From an uncultured Bacteroidia bacterium (GTDB taxonomy: Bacteria > Bacteroidota > Bacteroidia > Bacteroidales > Prolixibacteraceae), in assembly GCA_903834845.1 (NCBI GenBank), contig CAILKW010000142.1:18-64017 (forward strand): 64,000 nt of DNA. The letters are read 5' to 3'. The notes under the pieces are model-generated. The model was not told the DNA's origin. It worked only from the letters and a program-made list of their open reading frames with translations, and did no database searches. This document shows positions 7,455 to 23,140 of this stretch, piece by piece (the first letter of the stretch is position 1; each line of letters begins with the position of its first letter). A program made the translations under genes and the position numbers.

Positions 7455-7664
7455 ATGACACTGACATTGGTAATTAAAAAAGGTAAAAATGGATACCTGA
7501 TTGGGCAGTTAAAAGAATTACCGGAAGTTTTTACGCAAGGACTTTCAGTTGAAGAGGTAAAAGAGAACATAGTTGATTCGTTAGAAATGTACCTCGAAGA
7601 TATGCGTGAGAAATATCAACCCGAAGGGGAAATGATACAGGAAAAGGAATTAATCTTCGCGTAA
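7455..7664 (+). CDS. hicB: HicB-family antitoxin
   Basis: 69 aa, LIGQLKELPEVFTQGLSVEEVKENIVDSLEMYLED. Lies 3 nt upstream of a HicA-like ORF. Confidence 0.7.
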   Translation: MTLTLVIKKGKNGYLIGQLKELPEVFTQGLSVEEVKENIVDSLEMYLEDMREKYQPEGEMIQEKELIFA

Positions 7665-7667
7665 TTC

Positions 7668-7856
7668 ATGAAGAGGAACAAATTTATCCAATATCTGAAT
7701 GAACATAACTGTGGTTTCATAAACCATGGAAGTAAACACGATAAATATATGAATCATGTCAACGGCAAAAGAACAAATATTCCGCGTCATCCCGACATTG
7801 ATGATGATCTTTGCCGGTTGATATGCAAACAACTAGAAATTCCTAAGCTGAAGTGA
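7668..7856 (+). CDS. hicA: HicA-family mRNA interferase toxin
   Basis: 62 aa, FINHGSKHDKYMNHVNGKRTNIPRHPDIDDDLCRLICKQLEIP matches the HicA pattern (GSKH...IPRH..i...l...I.kqL.I). Confidence 0.8.
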   Translation: MKRNKFIQYLNEHNCGFINHGSKHDKYMNHVNGKRTNIPRHPDIDDDLCRLICKQLEIPKLK

Positions 7857-8074
7857 CGAAAAACATCATTAAATACCTGCAAACTTTATCAACTTCATAG
7901 TTGAGCATTATTTAACTCTTCAAGAGTTTTTTCTTCTTTATTTACTCTTTCTCAAAAAAAAAATTCGTTTATACACAGTTTTCTCCTTTGGAGAAAAAAA
8001 CTTGAAAGGATTTCATAAGTAACTTAAATACAATTATGAGAGCATGTATTTTTTAACCAATATAATGCCAAATA

Positions 8075-14398: not shown

Positions 14399-14445
14399 CG
14401 ATTACGAATTACACGAATTAAAACGAATTTTACGAACAAATTACA
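14399..14445. repeat. ACGAATT/AATTCGT word array (spacer after rfbF)
   Basis: ATTACGAATTACACGAATTAAAACGAATTTTACGAAC holds three ACGAATT words at 9-11 nt spacing. It is followed by CACAG-type words and an 8-bp hairpin (AAAGCACT..AGTGCTTT, about 14491-14520). Confidence 0.7.
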
Positions 14446-15627: not shown

Positions 15628-15686
15628 AAACGAACCACTTCGTGTAATTCGTAATAATTCGTGTAATTCGTATAATTCGTAACAAT
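15628..15686. repeat. AATTCGT word array
   Basis: Four AATTCGT words start at 15646, 15656, 15665 and 15674, a 9-10 nt phasing. They lie immediately upstream of the antitoxin-like ORF. Confidence 0.8.
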
Positions 15687-15941
15687 ATGTTGGCAATAAA
15701 AGCAAATTATCATAATGGCATAATTACTTTTCTCGAAGCCATGCCAGAGAAAGTAAGGAATGCACGGTTGACCATTGTAGTGGAACCGGAGGAACAGGAC
15801 AATAGTTTTATCCCATCACAAGATTTTAAAAGTACACAAATTGATAGTGAAGTTGAATTTGAAGCCATGGGACTGAGTGCGCTTTTTGATGACGAAAACG
15901 ATAAAAACATTAATTGGGAGGATTATTTTGGACTCAAATAA
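15687..15941 (+). CDS. Small antitoxin-like protein (DUF104-like N-terminus)
   Basis: 84 aa, MLAIKANYHNGIITFLEAMPEKVRNARLTIVVEPE resembles the i.A.Y.NG.i..LE.. antitoxin family, with an acidic tail. Lies upstream of and overlapping a MazF-like module. Confidence 0.5.
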   Translation: MLAIKANYHNGIITFLEAMPEKVRNARLTIVVEPEEQDNSFIPSQDFKSTQIDSEVEFEAMGLSALFDDENDKNINWEDYFGLK

Positions 15942-16284
15942 ATTCAACATCGGCGAAATTGTCTTGATCGATTTCCCCTATTCTAATCTAAAAGGCTCTA
16001 AATATAGGCCTGCTGTTATCATTGGAGTAACTGACATTCAGAACGATTTAATCGTTGCATTTGTTACATCAGAAATTGAAAATTATAGTTGGAGCGAATA
16101 TGCTGTTAAGTTCAGCCAGGCACATTTACAATCTGGTACAATTAAACAAGAAAGTATCATACGCTGCGACAAAATGATCACCATCAGTCCGCAACGTATT
16201 TCACTCAGAAAAGTTGGGACATTAAAGAAAACAAAAACTGCAGAAGTTCTCCGGAAATTGTCTCGAATCAGTGTCAATGGGGTA
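15877..16284 (+). CDS. MazF/PemK-like toxin module with no stop codon, continuing in frame into rfbH
   Basis: NIGEIVLIDFPYSNLKGSKYRPAVIIGV... is the MazF/PemK N-terminal signature. Possible starts are ATG 15877, ATG 15889 and TTG 15928. The frame runs uninterrupted into ATG 16285. Confidence 0.6.
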
Positions 16285-17550
16285 ATGGAAACAATTCATG
16301 CCAAACAAGACTTTATCCCTGGCAAATCACGGGTTAATTATGCCGGACGTGTATTCGATGAGAAAGAAATCAACAACGCTGTCAATGCTTCTCTTGATTT
16401 CTGGCTCACTGAAGGACGTTTCTCTGAAGAATTCTCCGAAAAGATTGCAGAATTTATAGGTGTGGAACATGTATTATTGACCAATTCGGGTTCTTCAGCC
16501 AATTTGCTTGCGTTCTCGGCACTGACTTCCGAAAAACTTGGCGACAAACGATTACGTCCGGGAGATGAAGTGGTATCAGTTGCAGCCGGGTTTCCTGCTA
16601 CCGTTACGCCGATTATCCAAAATGGTTTGGTTCCTGTGTTTGTTGATGTTGAGATACCTACCTACAATATTGATGTAGAGATGATGCGTAAAGCGATCAC
16701 GCTTAAAACCAGATGTATCTTTATTGCACATACCTTGGGGAATCCATTCAATATCGATGCCGTAATGCAATTGGCCAAAGAACACGATTTGTGGGTAATC
16801 GAAGACAATTGCGATGCATTTGGAAGTGAGTACAACGGTAAGAAGACGGGATCTTTTGCTCATCTTTCAACCATATCCTTCTATCCTGCCCATCATATCA
16901 CCACAGGCGAAGGAGGTGCAATTTGTACAAATGATCCTCAATTGGCTCAATTAGTTCGTGCTTTCCGCGACTGGGGACGTGATTGCTATTGTGCAGGCGG
17001 TGAAAACAACACTTGCGGCAAACGTTTCTCGCAGTTGTTTGGAAACCTTCCTTTCGGATTCGATCATAAATATGTTTATTCCGAAATTGGTTATAACCTA
17101 AAGATGACAGATATACAAGCTGCAATTGGTGTAGAACAAATCGAAAAACTACCATATTTCTGCGAACGCCGGAAAGCAAATTTTCAGGAATGGGAACGAA
17201 TTTTCACGAAGTATCATGATTACTTTATTTTGCCGAAAGCAACCGAACGAGCCGATCCGGCATGGTTTGCATTTATTGTAACTCTTAAGGAAACCGCTCC
17301 TTTTAAACGTGATGATTTAACAGGTCACCTAAATGCAAAGCTAATTGAAACCCGTAATCTGTTTGCAGGCAACATCACCAAACAACCAGGCTTCATGGGC
17401 AAAAACTGGCGCATTGCCGATCATTTGAATAATACTGACTACATAATGAATAACACTTTCTTCCTTGGTACATACCCTGGACTAACGAAAGATATGTTTG
17501 ATTATGCTGAAGGCGTACTCGATTCATTTGTTCAAGATTTCACGAATTAG
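16285..17550 (+). CDS. rfbH: CDP-6-deoxy-D-xylo-4-hexulose 3-dehydrase (E1, RfbH/DdhC)
   Basis: From METIHAKQDFIPGKSRVNYAGRVFDEKEINNAVNASLDFWLTEGRF.. for about 421 aa. DegT-type PLP/PMP fold with the RfbH-typical N-terminus. It is part of the composite ORF 15877..17550. Confidence 0.85.
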   Translation: METIHAKQDFIPGKSRVNYAGRVFDEKEINNAVNASLDFWLTEGRFSEEFSEKIAEFIGVEHVLLTNSGSSANLLAFSALTSEKLGDKRLRPGDEVVSVAAGFPATVTPIIQNGLVPVFVDVEIPTYNIDVEMMRKAITLKTRCIFIAHTLGNPFNIDAVMQLAKEHDLWVIEDNCDAFGSEYNGKKTGSFAHLSTISFYPAHHITTGEGGAICTNDPQLAQLVRAFRDWGRDCYCAGGENNTCGKRFSQLFGNLPFGFDHKYVYSEIGYNLKMTDIQAAIGVEQIEKLPYFCERRKANFQEWERIFTKYHDYFILPKATERADPAWFAFIVTLKETAPFKRDDLTGHLNAKLIETRNLFAGNITKQPGFMGKNWRIADHLNNTDYIMNNTFFLGTYPGLTKDMFDYAEGVLDSFVQDFTN

Positions 17551-17570
17551 GACGAATTACACGAATCGAA

Positions 17571-17945
17571 ATGCCAGAGATTATCTACAAAGAAGAAAGC
17601 TACAAGATCATAGGGGCATGTATGGAAGTCCATAAAAAGCTTGGTTGTGGGTTTCTTGAAAGTGTATATTCTGAGGCACTCGAAATAGAATTTAAGAAGT
17701 CCGAAATACCCTACGAGCGTGAAAAAAAATTGCCCGTATTTTATGGAGACGTTCCGCTTAAAAAGTATTTCAAAGCCGACTTCGTTTGTTATAATTCAAT
17801 CATCCTTGAACTGAAGGCAACAAAGTTTATTATTGAAGCTGATCACCGTCAAACGGTTAATAATGTAAAAGCCACCAAATTTCAACTTGGTTTGCTTATC
17901 AATTTCGGTACTCCATCATTGACCTATAAACGAATCGTCAATTAG
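17571..17945 (+). CDS. GxxExxY protein (PD-(D/E)XK-like small nuclease-fold family)
   Basis: 124 aa with GCGFLESVY (G-x-x-E-x-x-Y) and D...ELK (ADFVCYNSIILELKA). Flanked on both sides by ACGAATT/AATTCGT words. Confidence 0.8.
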   Translation: MPEIIYKEESYKIIGACMEVHKKLGCGFLESVYSEALEIEFKKSEIPYEREKKLPVFYGDVPLKKYFKADFVCYNSIILELKATKFIIEADHRQTVNNVKATKFQLGLLINFGTPSLTYKRIVN

Positions 17946-17978
17946 TCTAATTCGTGTTCGTGTTATTCGTTTAAATTC

Positions 17979-18671
17979 ATGAAATCAATGCTACAAAAAA
18001 AATATAAATCAGCTGTTGTATCCGTAATAAATCCATTCTCAGGTATCTATACTTTGGAAATTAAATCCTTGGGAAACAAATTCAAATACTCGCCTGGCCA
18101 ATTTCTTCACATTGCGATTGATTCAGATTACGATGGTACCAGCCAATGGCCCGATTCCCGATGTTTCTCGATGCAAAGCAATCCCGACGAAGAAACCATC
18201 CGGATTACTTATGCGGTAAAGGGATCATTTACCAAACAGATGGAACAAAACTTTAAAGTAGGTTCCGAAGTCTGGTTGAAACTACCTTATGGCGATTTGT
18301 TTTCCCAGCCACACAACAAAATTAATACTGTATTTATTGCTGGCGGCACAGGCATCACCCCGTTCCTCTCCCTTTTTACACACGAATCTTTCAACGAATA
18401 CCTCAACCCAAAAATTTACCTCGGGTTTCGTTCCCAGTCTTACAACATATATCAGGATGAACTCGTCAGTTCGAGAAATTCGTCAAAATTCGTGAAATTG
18501 TATAACGAGGACACCGATGGAATTATTGACATCCAAAGCATCTTCAACGAGAATGGCCCGGAACCCAATTATTTTATCTCCGGACCACCGGCAATGATTA
18601 AAGCCTTCAAAAACACGCTGATCGGTAAAAAAGTTCCAGCAGGAAATATACTTACCGATGATTGGGAGTAA
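17979..18671 (+). CDS. FNR-like FAD/NAD(P)-binding oxidoreductase, candidate E3 reductase for RfbH (lacks a ferredoxin domain)
   Basis: 230 aa. FLHIAIDS..RCFSM (FAD-binding RxxS-like) and VFIAGGTGITPFLS (NAD-binding). Sits directly after rfbH. Confidence 0.7.
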   Translation: MKSMLQKKYKSAVVSVINPFSGIYTLEIKSLGNKFKYSPGQFLHIAIDSDYDGTSQWPDSRCFSMQSNPDEETIRITYAVKGSFTKQMEQNFKVGSEVWLKLPYGDLFSQPHNKINTVFIAGGTGITPFLSLFTHESFNEYLNPKIYLGFRSQSYNIYQDELVSSRNSSKFVKLYNEDTDGIIDIQSIFNENGPEPNYFISGPPAMIKAFKNTLIGKKVPAGNILTDDWE

Positions 18672-18747
18672 CATTCGTGAAATTCATCAAAGTTCATTGA
18701 TTTTTTTTCCCTTGATAAGGGCAACAATTCTCAATTTATTATTTCAC

Positions 18748-18755
18748 TAACTTTG
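18748..18755 (+). promoter_or_regulatory. Bacteroidota -7 promoter-like motif TAnnTTTG
   Basis: TAACTTTG lies 22 nt upstream of ATG 18777. The motif is short and the DNA is AT-rich, so a chance match is quite possible. Confidence 0.25.
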
Positions 18756-18776
18756 TAAAACAACAATGAAACCAGA

Positions 18777-19097
18777 ATGACGAGCAGTGACAGAGAAATA
18801 TTAAGCCAAAAACTGATTTCATGCAAAAGCTTTTGGTCTTTTAAAATACCACAGGAAATCCCTGATGATATTTTAATTGAAAAAACTCTGATATACCTTG
18901 ATCTGGTGGATATTAATGTATTGTTTAAACTATTTTCATCAAAAAAGATAAAACATATTTGGCGGTCCCGTGTCGTGATTCAGGACGATTATTACCATAC
19001 GCTAAATAAACTGCTTGCATGGATGTATTTTGAAATAAAAAACCCAGACCGTTACATAAAAATAACAATTCGTAACCACATTAACCATCTTTCATGA
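18777..19097 (+). CDS. Small protein upstream of an AbiEii-type NTase, putative cognate antitoxin
   Basis: 106 aa. SFWSFKIPQEIPDDILIEKTLIYLDLVDINVLFKLF resembles the LFWDvd..ld...fIIeRvL.yG family that I recall upstream of such NTases. The stop overlaps the next start (ATGA). Confidence 0.45.
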   Translation: MTSSDREILSQKLISCKSFWSFKIPQEIPDDILIEKTLIYLDLVDINVLFKLFSSKKIKHIWRSRVVIQDDYYHTLNKLLAWMYFEIKNPDRYIKITIRNHINHLS

Positions 19098-19741
19098 CGG
19101 CCTTAGCACCTAACACTGGTAAACTTTTCGATAAAGTCGCCGCTCTGGAATGTATAAAGCCTTATTTCCTGGTGGGAGGTACCGCTCTTTCTCTGCAACT
19201 AGATACCCGTCTTAGCGAAGATTTGGACTTCATGAACTGGAAGACACAGAAAAGGCAAAAACAAGAGGTTGATTGGTTTGCTATTGAAAAAGAATTATCA
19301 ACAATAGGAACTATTGAAGCCCACGATATTTGGGATTTTAATCACGTTGAATTTTTGGTTGCCGGAGTCAAATTCTCATTTTACAATTCCATGAAATCCT
19401 CTCCGATTGCAGCTCCGGTTTACTTAAAAGACAATTTACAACTTGCCGATATTGAAGCAATCGGTGCAATGAAAATGGAAGTAATGTTGCGCAGAAGCAA
19501 TTTTCGCGATTATTACGATATCTATGCTATACTTCAACATGGAATAGATTTTAAAAAGCTGGTTGATTTATCATTAAATTATTCGGGGCACATTTTAACA
19601 ACCAAAAATCTACTTGCTATACTAATCAATAGTTCACGTTTTAATATTGATCAAGGATTTGAACTGTTAAACCCAAAATATAAGGTAGGCCCTGCCGAAA
19701 TTGAGGCTTATCTGAAAATAAAGATTAAAGCATCATTTTGA
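19094..19741 (+). CDS. AbiEii/AbiGii-family nucleotidyltransferase toxin-like protein
   Basis: YFLVGGTALSLQLDTRLSEDLDFM is the AbiEii (DUF1814) N-terminal signature. 215 aa. Confidence 0.7.
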   Translation: MTALAPNTGKLFDKVAALECIKPYFLVGGTALSLQLDTRLSEDLDFMNWKTQKRQKQEVDWFAIEKELSTIGTIEAHDIWDFNHVEFLVAGVKFSFYNSMKSSPIAAPVYLKDNLQLADIEAIGAMKMEVMLRRSNFRDYYDIYAILQHGIDFKKLVDLSLNYSGHILTTKNLLAILINSSRFNIDQGFELLNPKYKVGPAEIEAYLKIKIKASF

Positions 19742-19784
19742 TTTGTAAAAATATATTACCTGGGTACAAATACTGGTAGTATAG

Positions 19785-19918
19785 AGATTTTTCATAGCAA
19801 GGCATCTGCTATCAACTACTTTATCTACGGCCCTCCGGCAATGATTAAAGCCTTTAAAAACACGCTGATCGGTAAAAAAGTTCCATCAGAAAATATTCTG
19901 ACCGACGATTGGGAGTAA
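19785..19918 (+). pseudogene. Reductase 3' remnant 1 (copy of the end of 17979..18671)
   Basis: ..NYFIYGPPAMIKAFKNTLIGKKVPSENILTDDWE* compares with the intact ..NYFISGPPAMIKAFKNTLIGKKVPAGNILTDDWE*. It has no 5' part. Confidence 0.85.
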
Positions 19919-19976
19919 CTTTCGAGTAATTCGTCTAAATTCGTGAAATCCGCAAAAATGTAATTCGTATTTTCTA

Positions 19977-20990
19977 ATGATTAATTCTGTACACACAAAT
20001 AATTTTGGGCCTTTAACTGATTTACAGTGGAATAAATTGGGGAATATTAACTTGATATTAGGCCCTAACAGTTGTGGAAAAACATTCTTGCTCAAAGCAT
20101 TGTACAGTGCAATCCGCACACTCGAAGATTACCGAAGGGGTGATGATCAGCGGACTGCCTCCGAAATCTTGCAAGAAAAATTATATTGGACTTTCCAATC
20201 CGATAAAATCGGAGATATAGTAACTAAAGGAGCTGAAACGCCCCTTTCATTTAAAATGCAAATTGACAACCACGATTTTCGATATTCATTTGGACGCGAT
20301 ACTGTGAAACAGATCTCTGAATTGGAAAACCATAATCCAAAGCGTGAAAGCAACTCCATATTCCTACCCGCTAAAGAAGTCTTGTCTATTCACCATATCA
20401 TCCTGAAGTCCAGAGAAATTGACAAAGTATTTGGATTTGACGATACCTATCTCGACTTGGCAAGGGCTATAAGGCAGTCACCGAAAAAAGGAAAAAACTT
20501 TGATGAATTTGCAAGGTCTCGGCAGAAATTAGAGGAAATGATTGGTGGCAAAATTGAATTTGATGAATTAACAGGCAAATGGCTTTTCAAAAAAGGCAAT
20601 GCAAAATTTACAATTGGCTCAACTGCTGAAGGGATAAAAAAAATTGCGATTGTTGACACGTTATTAGGAAACCGATATCTTGATGACAAATCGGTTGTAT
20701 TTATTGATGAACCCGAATCTGCCTTGCATCCTGATGCAATTGGCACATTGCTTGATATTGTGGCTCTTCTGGCCGAAAGGGGAATTCAGTTTTTTATGGC
20801 AAGTCACTCCTATTTTGTAGTCAAGAAACTTCTACTCATTGCATTGGAAAAGAACTTGTCCATCCCTGTAATTAGTTTTCAGGAAAATAGGTGGAATATG
20901 GCAGATCTAAGAGAAGGAATGCCATCGAATTCAATTGTCCAGGCCTCAATCGACCTCTACATGAAAGAGGTTGAAATTCAAACTACCTGA
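19977..20990 (+). CDS. ABC/SMC-like P-loop ATPase (AAA_21-like)
   Basis: Walker A LILGPNSCGKTF, Walker B VVFIDEPESALHP and H-loop-like MASHS. 337 aa with no transmembrane or transporter partner. Confidence 0.75.
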   Translation: MINSVHTNNFGPLTDLQWNKLGNINLILGPNSCGKTFLLKALYSAIRTLEDYRRGDDQRTASEILQEKLYWTFQSDKIGDIVTKGAETPLSFKMQIDNHDFRYSFGRDTVKQISELENHNPKRESNSIFLPAKEVLSIHHIILKSREIDKVFGFDDTYLDLARAIRQSPKKGKNFDEFARSRQKLEEMIGGKIEFDELTGKWLFKKGNAKFTIGSTAEGIKKIAIVDTLLGNRYLDDKSVVFIDEPESALHPDAIGTLLDIVALLAERGIQFFMASHSYFVVKKLLLIALEKNLSIPVISFQENRWNMADLREGMPSNSIVQASIDLYMKEVEIQTT

Positions 20991-20992
20991 TC

Positions 20993-21502
20993 ATGGTAAC
21001 AGTAGTAGAATCGGGAATGACTTTTGGTCCTTTCCATGAAGATCAATTTTTTTATATAGAAAAATGTATTGTTTACCGGGCAATTCAAGACCAGGTAAAA
21101 ATGGTCGAATTTGTTTTACATAAACCGAATGGAGTTGATGGACAAATATGGTTGATTGAGGCGAAACAAAGCTCACCTCAACCTAAAAATCAAGCAGATT
21201 GGGAGTTTTATTTGGGTGAACTAAAAGAAAAATTTGAAAATGGATTAAGCCTCTTTCTTGCTTTGTGTTTGAATAGGTATTCCGATCCGGATTTTCACGA
21301 AGCAATAAGAACTGTTGATATGGGGAACATACAATTCAAAATTACTTTAGTTATAAAAGGTCATAAAATCGAATGGTTACCTCCTCTTAAAGATGCACTT
21401 CAACAGAGACTTTTACCCCTTTGCAAATCCTTAAATCTTACACCCAACCCCGTGTTGGTAGTTAACGATGAAATGGCACGCGCGAAAGGATTAATCACTT
21501 AA
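20993..21502 (+). CDS. Uncharacterised 169-aa partner of the ATPase, possible PD-(D/E)XK-like fold
   Basis: Starts 2 nt after the ATPase stop. MVEFVLHKPNGVDGQIWLIEAKQS gives a D/E ... E-x-K arrangement. I recognise no family. Confidence 0.5.
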   Translation: MVTVVESGMTFGPFHEDQFFYIEKCIVYRAIQDQVKMVEFVLHKPNGVDGQIWLIEAKQSSPQPKNQADWEFYLGELKEKFENGLSLFLALCLNRYSDPDFHEAIRTVDMGNIQFKITLVIKGHKIEWLPPLKDALQQRLLPLCKSLNLTPNPVLVVNDEMARAKGLIT

Positions 21503-21552
21503 TTCGTGCAATTCGTGCAATTCGTTTTAATTCGTGTAATTCGTATTTTATA
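21503..21552. repeat. AATTCGT word array
   Basis: AATTCGTGCAATTCGTGCAATTCGTTTTAATTCGTGTAATTCGTATTTTATAAC carries five phased words. The same 3' junction (..GTAATTCGTATTTTATAACAAAACAAATAC) recurs at 22684-22712. Confidence 0.8.
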
Positions 21553-21947
21553 ACAAAACAAATACTGTATTTATTGCTGGTGGCACAGGTATCACCCCTT
21601 TCCTCTCGCTCTTTACCCACGAATCCTTCAACGACTATATAAAGCCAAAGATCTATTTAGGTTTCAGATCTAAGGAATATAACATCTATCAGGCTGAACT
21701 TGATCGAATGATACAACTTCGTAAAGAATCATCGGTCCCTGAGCGCGAAGCAGTCGAAGGGAAATTTGTGAAATCCTACATACAAGAAAGCGATGGTGTT
21801 ATAGATATAGAGGAAATCTTTCTTGACAACGGTATTCATTCGAACTACTTTATCTCCGGCCCTCCTGCCATGATCAAGAACTTTAAGCAGACTCTTCTTT
21901 CAAATGGAGTACCGACAAGAAATGTTCTAACCGACGATTGGGAGTAA
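21553..21947 (+). pseudogene. Reductase 3' remnant 2 (about the C-terminal half)
   Basis: The open frame reads NTVFIAGGTGITPFLSLFTHESFNDYIKPKIYLGFRS..NYFISGPPAMIKNFKQTLLSNGVPTRNVLTDDWE*. It has no start codon before M at 21708. It corresponds to intact 18330-18671. Confidence 0.85.
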
Positions 21948-22038
21948 ATTCGTGAAATTCCTGCCTACGGTAGGCAGACGTTTTGATTCGTGTAATCCGT
22001 ATTTACTAAATATGCGTATCTTAGCAAAAAAAAATGAT

Positions 22039-22245
22039 ATGACAGATGTTCAATTATATAAAAGGTTACAAAATCTCAAACCTTCTTTAAAAGCAGAGGT
22101 TTATGACTTTGTCGATTTTCTTTTGACCAAACAAGAGAAAGATATTAAACTTGTGAAACCTCAGTTTGGGTGCGCAAAAGGCAGGTTTAAAATGGCTCCT
22201 GATTTTGATGCACCACTAGATGATTTAAAAGAATATATGTACTAA
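22039..22245 (+). CDS. DUF2281-like antitoxin (VapB-type partner)
   Basis: MTDVQLYKRLQNLKPSLKAEVYDFVDFLLTKQ...GCAKGRFKMAPDFDAPLDDLKEYMY. The DFDaPL tail is typical. The stop overlaps the PIN gene start. Confidence 0.65.
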   Translation: MTDVQLYKRLQNLKPSLKAEVYDFVDFLLTKQEKDIKLVKPQFGCAKGRFKMAPDFDAPLDDLKEYMY

Positions 22246-22628
22246 TGGATATTTTACTGGATACACATACATTCATTTGGTTCTTTAATGGCGATGAACA
22301 ATTGTCTTTTAAAGCTAAAAAGCTTATAGAAGATTCAAAAATCAGAAAATTTGTAAGTATTGCATCAATTTGGGAGGTTGCAATTAAAATTGGGCTTAAA
22401 AAATTGTTTTTCGATGGTAACGTAAGTGAAGTAGCTGAACTAATTGAAAAAAATGGATTTCGAATATTGCAAATTTCAGTTGGTCACGCTGTTGCTTATG
22501 AAGCTTTGGAGTTGGTTCATCGTGATCCATTTGACAGGATTCTTGTAGCGCAGGGAATGGTAGAAAAGATGACAATAATTACGAAAGACGATAATATTAA
22601 AAAATACATAGTTAAAACAAATTGGTAA
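22245..22628 (+). CDS. vapC: PIN-domain VapC-family toxin
   Basis: MDILLDTHTFIWF.. at 127 aa, with DPFDRILVAQ near the C-terminus. Classic VapC layout. Confidence 0.8.
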   Translation: MDILLDTHTFIWFFNGDEQLSFKAKKLIEDSKIRKFVSIASIWEVAIKIGLKKLFFDGNVSEVAELIEKNGFRILQISVGHAVAYEALELVHRDPFDRILVAQGMVEKMTIITKDDNIKKYIVKTNW

Positions 22629-22707
22629 TAATTCAATTCTAATCAGCCTTTGCAAAAATTCGTGCCATTCGTTTTAATTCTTGTAATTCGTATTTTATAA
22701 CAAAACA

Positions 22708-23099
22708 AATACAGTCTTTATAGCCCGTGGAACAGGCATCACACCATTCCTCTCCCTTTTCACACACGAATCTTTCAACGAATACCTCAACCCGAAAATT
22801 TACTTTGGTTTCATTCAAAAGAATATAACATCTACCAGGAAGAACTGAACCGTATGATGGCAATTCGTACCATTCTTACAAATTTGGGTAATTCGAGTGA
22901 ATGTAATTCGTTTATATCCTTGAAATCTTACAATCAGGATACTGACGGAGTTATTGATATTCAGAAAATCCTAAATGAAAATGGTAAAAACTCGAACTAT
23001 TTTATCTCTGGTCCACCAATAATGATAAAATCTTTCAAGAAAACGTTGATTACCAACGGGATTCCATCTCAAAATGTGCTAATAGTTAACTGGGAATAA
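22708..23099 (+). pseudogene. Reductase 3' remnant 3 (frameshifted)
   Basis: NTVFIARGTGITPFLSLFTHESFNEYLNPKIYFGF.. then a frame break, then ..NYFISGPPIMIKSFKKTLITNGIPSQNVLIVNWE* (ORF 22854..23099). It begins at the same gene position as remnant 2. Confidence 0.85.
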
Positions 23100-23140
23100 A
23101 ATTAATACTAATCGTTTTAAATTCGTGCAATTCGCATTTT

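Follow-up and report, generated by a model that had tools for sequence, protein, structure and literature searches.

The 64,000-nt stretch of contig CAILKW010000142.1 analyzed here (the window), from an uncultured bacterium of the Prolixibacteraceae (Bacteroidota), contains two adjacent genes that, judged from their sequences, are a divergent copy of HEC-02 and fall in a catalogued sub-family of this named, phage-tested system. The first gene encodes a 337-aa ATPase (HEC-02A type) and the second a 169-aa partner (HEC-02B type) predicted to be a PD-(D/E)xK nuclease; 2 nt separate the stop codon of the one from the start codon of the other, a plus-strand layout borne out by the list of open reading frames (ORFs). 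We consider it quite likely that the two genes constitute an HEC-02-type anti-phage defense system. An earlier interpretation of this DNA from its letters alone (the sequence-only reading) had proposed an uncharacterized ATPase-nuclease defense pair. The function that it proposed appears essentially right on the basis of the sequence matches and a structural model, whereas its claim of novelty was wrong because the pair is HEC-02.

The assignment is carried by hidden Markov model (HMM) scans of the window proteins with the PADLOC-DB v2 models, in which both proteins gave full-length HEC-02 matches. The ATPase matched the HEC-02 ATPase model PDLC04214 over residues 1-335 of 337 (E 3.5e-159), as well as PDLC04213 (5.2e-58) and PDLC04146 (9.2e-43); its best model outside the HEC group was AriA, at 6e-24. 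The partner, which the sequence-only reading could not place in any family and for which our Pfam and NCBIfam scans also returned no family, matched the HEC-02B model PDLC04221 over residues 1-168 of 169 (1.9e-57) and five more sub-models. The three elements by which PADLOC-DB v2 defines HEC-02, namely the ATPase model, the partner model and same-strand adjacency with the ATPase gene first, were all found. Thus, the pair matches a system that already has a name, an outcome that the sequence-only reading itself had listed as evidence against its view. Pfam identified AAA_21 (6.7e-22) and AAA_15 (1.5e-14) in the ATPase and no extra domain within its 337 residues, and Pfam and NCBIfam recorded weak similarity to the SMC_N and RecF N-termini. 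As a side observation on the database, the labels of PDLC04145 and PDLC04146 look swapped: PDLC04146, labeled "HEC-02B", finds ATPases (the tested Dickeya ATPase at 8.4e-183 and the window ATPase at 9.2e-43), and PDLC04145, labeled "HEC-02A", finds the small Dickeya partner (1.2e-85).

HEC-02, or "Hma-embedded candidate 02", was described by Payne, Hughes, Fineran & Jackson (bioRxiv 2024, 10.1101/2024.01.29.577857) as an ABC ATPase, for which an ABC-specific fold was reported, combined with a PD-(D/E)xK protein that carries a (D/E/Q)xK motif and was called NERD-like on structural grounds. A representative tested in E. coli gave fewer plaques for several phages, and both genes were needed; HEC-03 and HEC-04, unlike HEC-02, were reported to be toxic when induced (10.1101/2024.01.29.577857). 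Sensing by HEC-02 and the role of ATP were left to be determined, and according to the supplement additional families were "incorporated into HEC-02 model" (10.1101/2024.01.29.577857). The tested pair came from Dickeya dianthicola NCPPB 3534 (WP_024108366.1 and WP_024108365.1) (10.1101/2024.01.29.577857). A literature search found no later mechanistic paper on HEC-02.

In the Dickeya pair, the gene for the 342-aa ATPase comes first and overlaps the gene for the 169-aa partner by 4 nt. The window pair resembles it in having the ATPase first, a 169-aa protein with a (D/E)xK motif second, and a homologous ATPase (27% identity over 273 residues, E 5e-32). When a profile of the partner family was aligned to the Dickeya partner, the two were colinear over 155 columns (hhalign, E 1.8e-4), PDLC04221 also matches the Dickeya partner (8.9e-6), and the equivalents of E56 and K58 are kept in the Dickeya protein. 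The window pair differs in belonging to another sub-family, recognized by other PADLOC sub-models, and in lying in a sugar operon rather than in Hma; the discovery context of HEC-02, embedding in Hma or another multi-gene defense system, is no requirement for membership and is absent from the window. Separately, the RefSeq name of the Dickeya partner, "cysteinyl-tRNA synthetase", looks misannotated.

The motifs that the sequence-only reading had pointed out, GPNSCGKT, VVFIDEPESALHP and MASHS in the ATPase and MVEFVLHKPNGVDGQIWLIEAKQS in the partner, were all located in the translations (Table 1). Conservation of the ATPase was assessed in 73 sequences from loci with both genes; in addition to the motif residues listed in Table 1, H251 and P252 just past Walker B, E218 and G219 were invariant. 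We take MASHS to be the H-loop/switch of ABC ATPases. Judged by its sequence, HEC-02A is a soluble ATPase of the ABC type in which Walker A, Walker B and the H-loop are all intact and conserved.

The partner has 39 database homologues, with identity down to 36%. In an alignment of 32 homologues, the invariant residues were E6, E23, E39, E56, A57, K58, K80, R95 and a few others; MVEFVLHKPNGVDGQIWLIEAKQS (MVEF...IEAKQS), spanning residues 37-60, contains both E39 and E56-A57-K58. An AlphaFold2 model built on this alignment was confident (predicted local distance difference test score, pLDDT, 94.1; predicted template modeling score, pTM, 0.90) and placed a helix at 26-31, adjacent strands at 40-44 and 51-58, and a long helix at 67-92. 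This topology and the placement of the motif within it are what we take to be a PD-(D/E)xK nuclease core. The top fold matches in the PDB (Foldseek) were FokI (E 1e-2, probability 0.92), BsmI, HamA, Mus81 and BamHI, all of which are restriction-fold nucleases; a BFVD search gave similarly weak hints, and Pfam at E <= 10 over the 32 homologues gave faint hints of HamA (2 homologues) and BsuBI/PstI. The suggestion that the E-x-K sequence belongs to a restriction-endonuclease-like fold is strengthened in that E56, K58 and the upstream E39 are invariant and, in a confident model, sit on the strands where such residues are expected; a confident non-nuclease housekeeping fold, which would have spoken against that suggestion, was not what the partner gave. 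The fold assignment is consistent but weak, resting on the motif, the topology and the type of the top matches, and E39 and E56-x-K58 are the predicted metal-binding and catalytic residues. The "NERD" label is valid just as the structural resemblance reported by Payne et al.

Linkage of the two genes was evaluated in species-representative genomes, in which 156 relatives of the partner were found and the best 80 were examined. At every one of the 74 loci with enough upstream sequence, an ATPase homologue (45-94% identity) lay directly upstream, on the same strand and a few nt away; at the remaining 6 of the 80 loci a partial ATPase reached the contig end. Co-occurrence outside this genome, on which the sequence-only reading had made its proposal depend, thus held at all testable loci. 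The best 80 of the 156 relatives came from Bacteroidota, Cyanobacteria, Alpha-, Beta-, Gamma- and Deltaproteobacteria, Verrucomicrobiota, Lentisphaerota, Acidobacteriota, Synergistota and others, and at species level the sub-family is present in no fewer than 156 genomes, which span many phyla. A large ORF was also observed downstream of the pair in several Proteobacteria and Verrucomicrobiota: at loci L022, L024, L036, L050, L062, L074 and L075, a same-strand ORF of 777-1053 aa begins ~18 nt past it.

Both genes are under purifying selection: against close relatives, the ratio of nonsynonymous to synonymous substitution rates (dN/dS) is 0.03-0.04 in the ATPase gene and 0.16-0.18 in the partner gene. 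Because of the Pfam match, the homologues and the low dN/dS, we regard both ORFs as real genes. The ATPase is the better conserved of the two in close relatives (94-95% amino-acid identity vs 73-76% for the partner) as well as in most loci (55-70% vs 38-47%); evolving ~5x more slowly than its partner, it runs contrary to the expectation for a fast-evolving sensor.

Flanking genes differ in nearly every genome, and the distribution across phyla is patchy. A survey of 131 nearest-neighbor ORFs at ~70 loci contained 5 type I R subunits (downstream), 4 S subunits (upstream) and 2 type ISP enzymes, the remainder being miscellaneous housekeeping genes; at ~5 of the loci the pair sits between hsdS and hsdR of a type I restriction-modification (R-M) system, as in the HEC-02 discovery context. 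Phage collections yielded 2 remote phage-contig matches and plasmid collections 6 records, the best being a Comamonas plasmid at 65%; with these matches only, carriage on phages or plasmids is not typical of the family. Its behavior is that of a two-gene unit, small and horizontally mobile, that is sometimes found within R-M systems.

By analogy with PARIS, Gabija and OLD, we infer a mechanism in which a sensor ATPase controls a nuclease effector. HEC-02A and HEC-02B would form a complex with the ATPase as sensor and regulator; upon detection of an infection cue by the ATPase, ATP binding or hydrolysis would activate or release the nuclease, which would then cut nucleic acid and stop phage replication, either by direct cleavage of phage DNA or by killing of the infected cell. 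For the sensor-scaffold-release logic, PARIS offers a plausible model (PMC11464382). PARIS (AriA and AriB) likewise combines a soluble AAA_21/AAA_15-type ABC ATPase with a small nuclease effector, but AriB is a Toprim/DUF4435 protein whereas the partner here is of the PD-(D/E)xK type, and AriA is 55 kDa whereas the ATPase here has 337 aa; for tRNA targeting as in PARIS there is no evidence in the HEC-02 pair here. Gabija (GajA/GajB) and OLD share the coupling of ABC ATPase logic to a nuclease, and weak HMM cross-matches were seen; in those systems, however, a Toprim domain is fused to the ATPase (in Gabija with a UvrD-like helicase in addition), unlike the separate restriction-fold partner here.

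The sequence-only reading had remarked that the small protein does not look like the HNH, Toprim or DUF4435 partners of such systems, and the profile scans agree: neither Toprim nor DUF4435 was matched in Pfam, NCBIfam or PADLOC scans of the partner or in Pfam at E <= 10 over the 32 homologues, and there was no HNH match such as the Septu partner PtuB would give, PtuA models reaching just the C-terminal ATPase core (~1e-10). In predicted fold class and catalytic motif the 169-aa protein is closest in kind to Hachiman HamA, NERD and the FokI cleavage domain, but HamA pairs with the helicase HamB and not with an ABC ATPase, and no significant NERD or HamA sequence match was found here. An AbiE type IV toxin-antitoxin (TA) identity was considered and rejected, in that "AbiEii" occurs only in the title of the AAA_21 Pfam family and the real AbiEii (PF08843) is a separate gene at 19094-19741.

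The window genes are all on the plus strand, in a long polysaccharide/sugar-nucleotide locus, and the HEC-02 genes occupy a co-directional cassette of ~1.6 kb after a reductase gene, probably co-transcribed with the sugar operon. The cassette is one element of an array (17979-23140) with the order reductase, AbiE, R2, HEC-02, R3, DUF2281/PIN and R4, where R2, R3 and R4 are remnants of the 3′ end of the reductase gene, after which the operon resumes with an epimerase (Table 1). The AbiE-type and VapBC-type neighbors recognized by the sequence-only reading are present by Pfam as the AbiEii and DUF2281-PIN modules. Each remnant covers the final ~40-120 codons of the gene, with 74-79% identity to that part of the intact reductase gene, and the cassette homology shared across genomes starts at 19955-19958. 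No recombinase gene was found within 10 kb.

Table 1. Coordinates of the HEC-02-type genes, their motifs and the surrounding cassette array in the window.
Feature	Position	Strand	Evidence or remark
ATPase gene, HEC-02A-type ABC ATPase	19977..20990	+	337 aa, ATG start
Walker A GPNSCGKT, residues 29-36	20061..20084	+	G29, G34, K35 invariant in 73 sequences
Walker B VVFIDEPE, residues 240-247 (VVFIDEPESALHP from residue 240)	20694..20717	+	D244, E247 invariant
MASHS, residues 274-278, presumed H-loop/switch position	20796..20810	+	S278 invariant, neighboring residues conserved
Partner gene, HEC-02B-type, predicted PD-(D/E)xK nuclease	20993..21502	+	169 aa, ATG start
E39, predicted "D" position of PD-(D/E)xK, start of strand 40-44	21107..21109	+	invariant in 32 homologues; D in Dickeya
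E56-A57-K58, predicted (D/E)xK motif, end of strand 51-58	21158..21166	+	invariant in 32 homologues
Intact FAD/NAD-binding reductase gene, 3′ part repeated after each cassette	17979..18671	+	ORF list, Pfam
AbiE cassette: 106-aa ORF and AbiEii	18777..19741	+	PF08843, 9.7e-16
R2, short reductase 3′ remnant	19742..19918	+	well-aligned part ~19820-19918, ending ...GATTGGGAGTAA
HEC-02 cassette left boundary	19928..19976	+	AATTCGT at 19928, 19938, 19962; ~20-nt leader
HEC-02 cassette right boundary	21501..21548	+	five tandem AATTCGT(G)N units; homology to locus L005 stops at 21548
R3, displaced reductase copy, codons ~113-230	21552..21947	+	74% identical, frame open
DUF2281 antitoxin-like gene and PIN toxin	21952..22628	+	Pfam, 5.7e-17 and 1.3e-17
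AATTCGT tract, then R4 (22699-23099)	22657..23099	+	76% identical to intact gene, frameshifted
AATTCGT tracts, 9-10-nt units	14399-14430(-), 15646-15680, 17542-17560(-), 17949-17975, 18673-18685
AATTCGT tracts, continued	19928-19968, 21501-21548, 21947-21960, 22657-22691, 23120-23133

The same cassette was found in other genomes as well. In a Prolixibacteraceae metagenome-assembled genome (locus L005; DAITNH010000289.1, 1062-4566), a segment with 83% nucleotide identity to window positions 19958-21548 follows a UDP-glucose dehydrogenase gene, and behind it lies a copy of the final 126 codons of that gene, 380 nt long, 79.5% identical and open in frame; the length of the duplicate is similar at the two target genes (~380-400 nt). 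In a relative with the same operon (loci L204-L210), the cassette comes directly after the reductase gene, without AbiE or PIN, and a reductase remnant again lies behind it; other intergenic slots are taken by PIN, HicA and DUF2442 TA cassettes. At locus L211 the cassette comes after an MNT/HepT pair and is accompanied by decayed pieces of a reductase remnant (7560-8060) with no reductase gene within 6 kb upstream, which indicates that a remnant can travel along when the cassette moves. The HEC-02 cassette is therefore portable between unrelated insertion sites. Across HEC-02 loci, only the window and L005 show a clear 3′-end duplication of the upstream gene, with L022, L058 and L076 as possible cases, loci with truncated upstream sequence (100%-identity rows, slicing artefacts) having been left out of this survey.

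The remnants are the 3′ ends of once-functional alleles that diverged under purifying selection. For R3, the proportion of nonsynonymous differences (pN) was 0.20 and that of synonymous differences (pS) 0.79, and dN/dS for the remnant in L005 was 0.21. Local tandem duplication was considered as the source of the remnants and rejected: they have diverged by 20-26%, yet the frames of R3 and the L005 remnant are open and pN is well below pS, from which we conclude that they diverged within working genes and not as decayed local duplicates.

Two other features of the same operon are recorded here. A PDDEXK_3 (GxxExxY-type) gene at 17571-17945 lies between the DegT gene and the reductase gene; since it occupies the same position in L204-L210, it is probably a long-standing operon resident rather than a recent cassette. 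Further upstream (15687-17550), a PemK/MazF-like toxin ORF is fused in frame to a DegT-type aminotransferase (557-aa ORF, 15877-17550), and an 84-aa ORF just before it (15687-15941) is a possible antitoxin. In L204, DegT is separate (439 aa) and the slot is filled by other TA cassettes (PIN, HicA, DUF2442).

Several results weigh against the assignment of the pair to HEC-02 as a nuclease-based defense system. The window partner is ~24% identical to the Dickeya partner with a marginal BLASTP E of 0.035, the hhalign probability for their alignment is just 49%, and the Dickeya proteins, which are the ones tested against phage, score best under other sub-models (PDLC04146 and PDLC04145). Foldseek searches of PDB and BFVD gave no match at E <= 0.001, the hits having E ~1e-2 and a template modeling (TM) score of ~0.38, within a range of ~0.3-0.4; Pfam NERD (PF08378) matched none of the 32 homologues at E <= 10. 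Sequence searches of PDB found no solved relative with the partner family profile and, for the ATPase, a weak ABC-transporter match alone and no solved relative. The nuclease activity of the partner, its substrate, its complex with the ATPase and the trigger are all inferred. In addition, the neighbors in the window are TA modules in a sugar operon and no classic defense island.

This last point bears on the possibility that the pair is mainly an addiction or stabilization module, in which a nuclease toxin restrained by the ATPase retains the cassette or the sugar operon. The array neighbors are of the TA type (AbiEii, DUF2281/PIN and the PemK-like gene), the cassette in L211 comes after MNT/HepT, the ATPase belongs to a Pfam family titled "putative AbiEii toxin, Type IV TA system", and the cassette is small, mobile and without a recombinase of its own. 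However, the tested HEC-02 protected against phage, with induction toxicity reported for HEC-03 and HEC-04 and not for HEC-02; abortive-infection defense is itself compatible with addiction, and the family is also embedded in type I R-M systems. On balance, we consider a primarily addictive role unlikely.

That the pair is instead a new, unnamed defense system, distinct from every described ATPase-nuclease pair, would fit a small protein without a Pfam or NCBIfam family and the marginal statistics of its comparison with the tested HEC-02B. Against this stand the full-length, very strong matches to HEC-02 sub-models already in PADLOC, the folding of extra families into the HEC-02 model in the supplement of Payne et al., the clear homology of the ATPases, and the same gene order, catalytic motif and matching sizes as in the Dickeya pair, and we judge it very unlikely. 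A housekeeping DNA-repair or recombination pair (RecF/SMC-like ATPase plus nuclease), to which the weak SMC_N and RecF similarity might point, is the least credible alternative and extremely improbable given the patchy distribution, the differing flanks, the presence or absence of the cassette between close relatives, its 82-84% nucleotide identity at different insertion sites and a homologue with defense data.

HEC-02 as a system is known, and what stands out more in the window is the array with its displaced gene ends. Every cassette has tandem AATTCGT(G)N units on both sides. On the plus strand, 21 of 26 AATTCGT heptamers lie within 15.6-23.1 kb, with ~6.6 expected per strand in the whole window, and the 13-mer ATTCGTGAAATTC occurs 12 times (0.33 expected). 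Between 14.4 and 23.1 kb, almost all boundaries of genes or cassettes carry a tract of these units, and the rest of the window has hardly any (Table 1). The AATTCGT tract was also detected in at least 120 metagenome stretches, many of them from freshwater lakes, and in L005, L204 and L211. Together with the nearest relatives of the cassette, these shared tracts suggest that the DNA probably comes from a Bacteroidota relative of Prolixibacteraceae. We rejected the idea that every tract marks a gene-3′ duplication, which was seen at just 6 of 70 metagenome tracts and was mostly unconvincing on inspection; given this low fraction, the tract is a lineage-specific repeat of intergenic DNA in general. 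It may serve as a recombination site or regulatory element, or be a repetitive extragenic palindromic (REP)-like repeat; Rfam identified no known RNA family in the window and none matching the tract.

AATTCGT-type units were also observed inside the reductase coding sequence (18477-18500), in a length-variable loop at ~codons 165-175, as well as in a remnant (22862-22911) and in L204 (7666-7690); being inside coding sequence, the repeats seem able to enter coding DNA or to expand there. A separate observation concerns locus L136, where an AATTCGT tract is preceded, ~1.3 kb upstream, by a 178-aa ORF (53-589) that includes "...AVDFLGF...LVLFEVKGF...", by eye a HEC-02B-like motif layout.

The order of the array suggests successive insertions, each pushing out the previous 3′ end. 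The simplest model, to our mind, would be serial insertion of donor DNA consisting of the 3′ part of a gene plus a cassette, with each event displacing the resident 3′ end. One crossover would take place within the gene and the second at a tract or at A/T-rich microhomology, as in homology-facilitated illegitimate recombination; alternatively, the 3′ end might be replaced as in e14 at icd.

Integrative elements that replace the 3′ end of their target gene include the e14 and phage 21 prophages at icd in E. coli. The array shares with them an intact target gene, an inserted element and, beyond it, a 3′-end copy that has been displaced and has diverged, but differs in that the cassettes are ~1-1.6 kb, lack an integrase, have AATTCGT junctions, are stacked and use two target genes. 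A dedicated form of cassette capture, integrase-less or acting in trans, with the tracts as recombination sites and the target gene regenerated at each insertion, seems doubtful to us; if true, it would amount to an integron-like platform for defense and TA cassettes inside polysaccharide operons of freshwater Bacteroidota-like genomes.

As a defense system the pair adds little, in that PADLOC run in the usual way would return it as HEC-02, for which protection has already been demonstrated. It does document a widespread HEC-02 sub-family that keeps the E...ExK residues, the ATPase motifs and strict gene linkage, and with no structure or mechanism for HEC-02 so far, any member is a reasonable biochemical target. 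The mode by which the cassettes were installed may be new, and the array could teach how small defense and TA cassettes spread without recombinases of their own.

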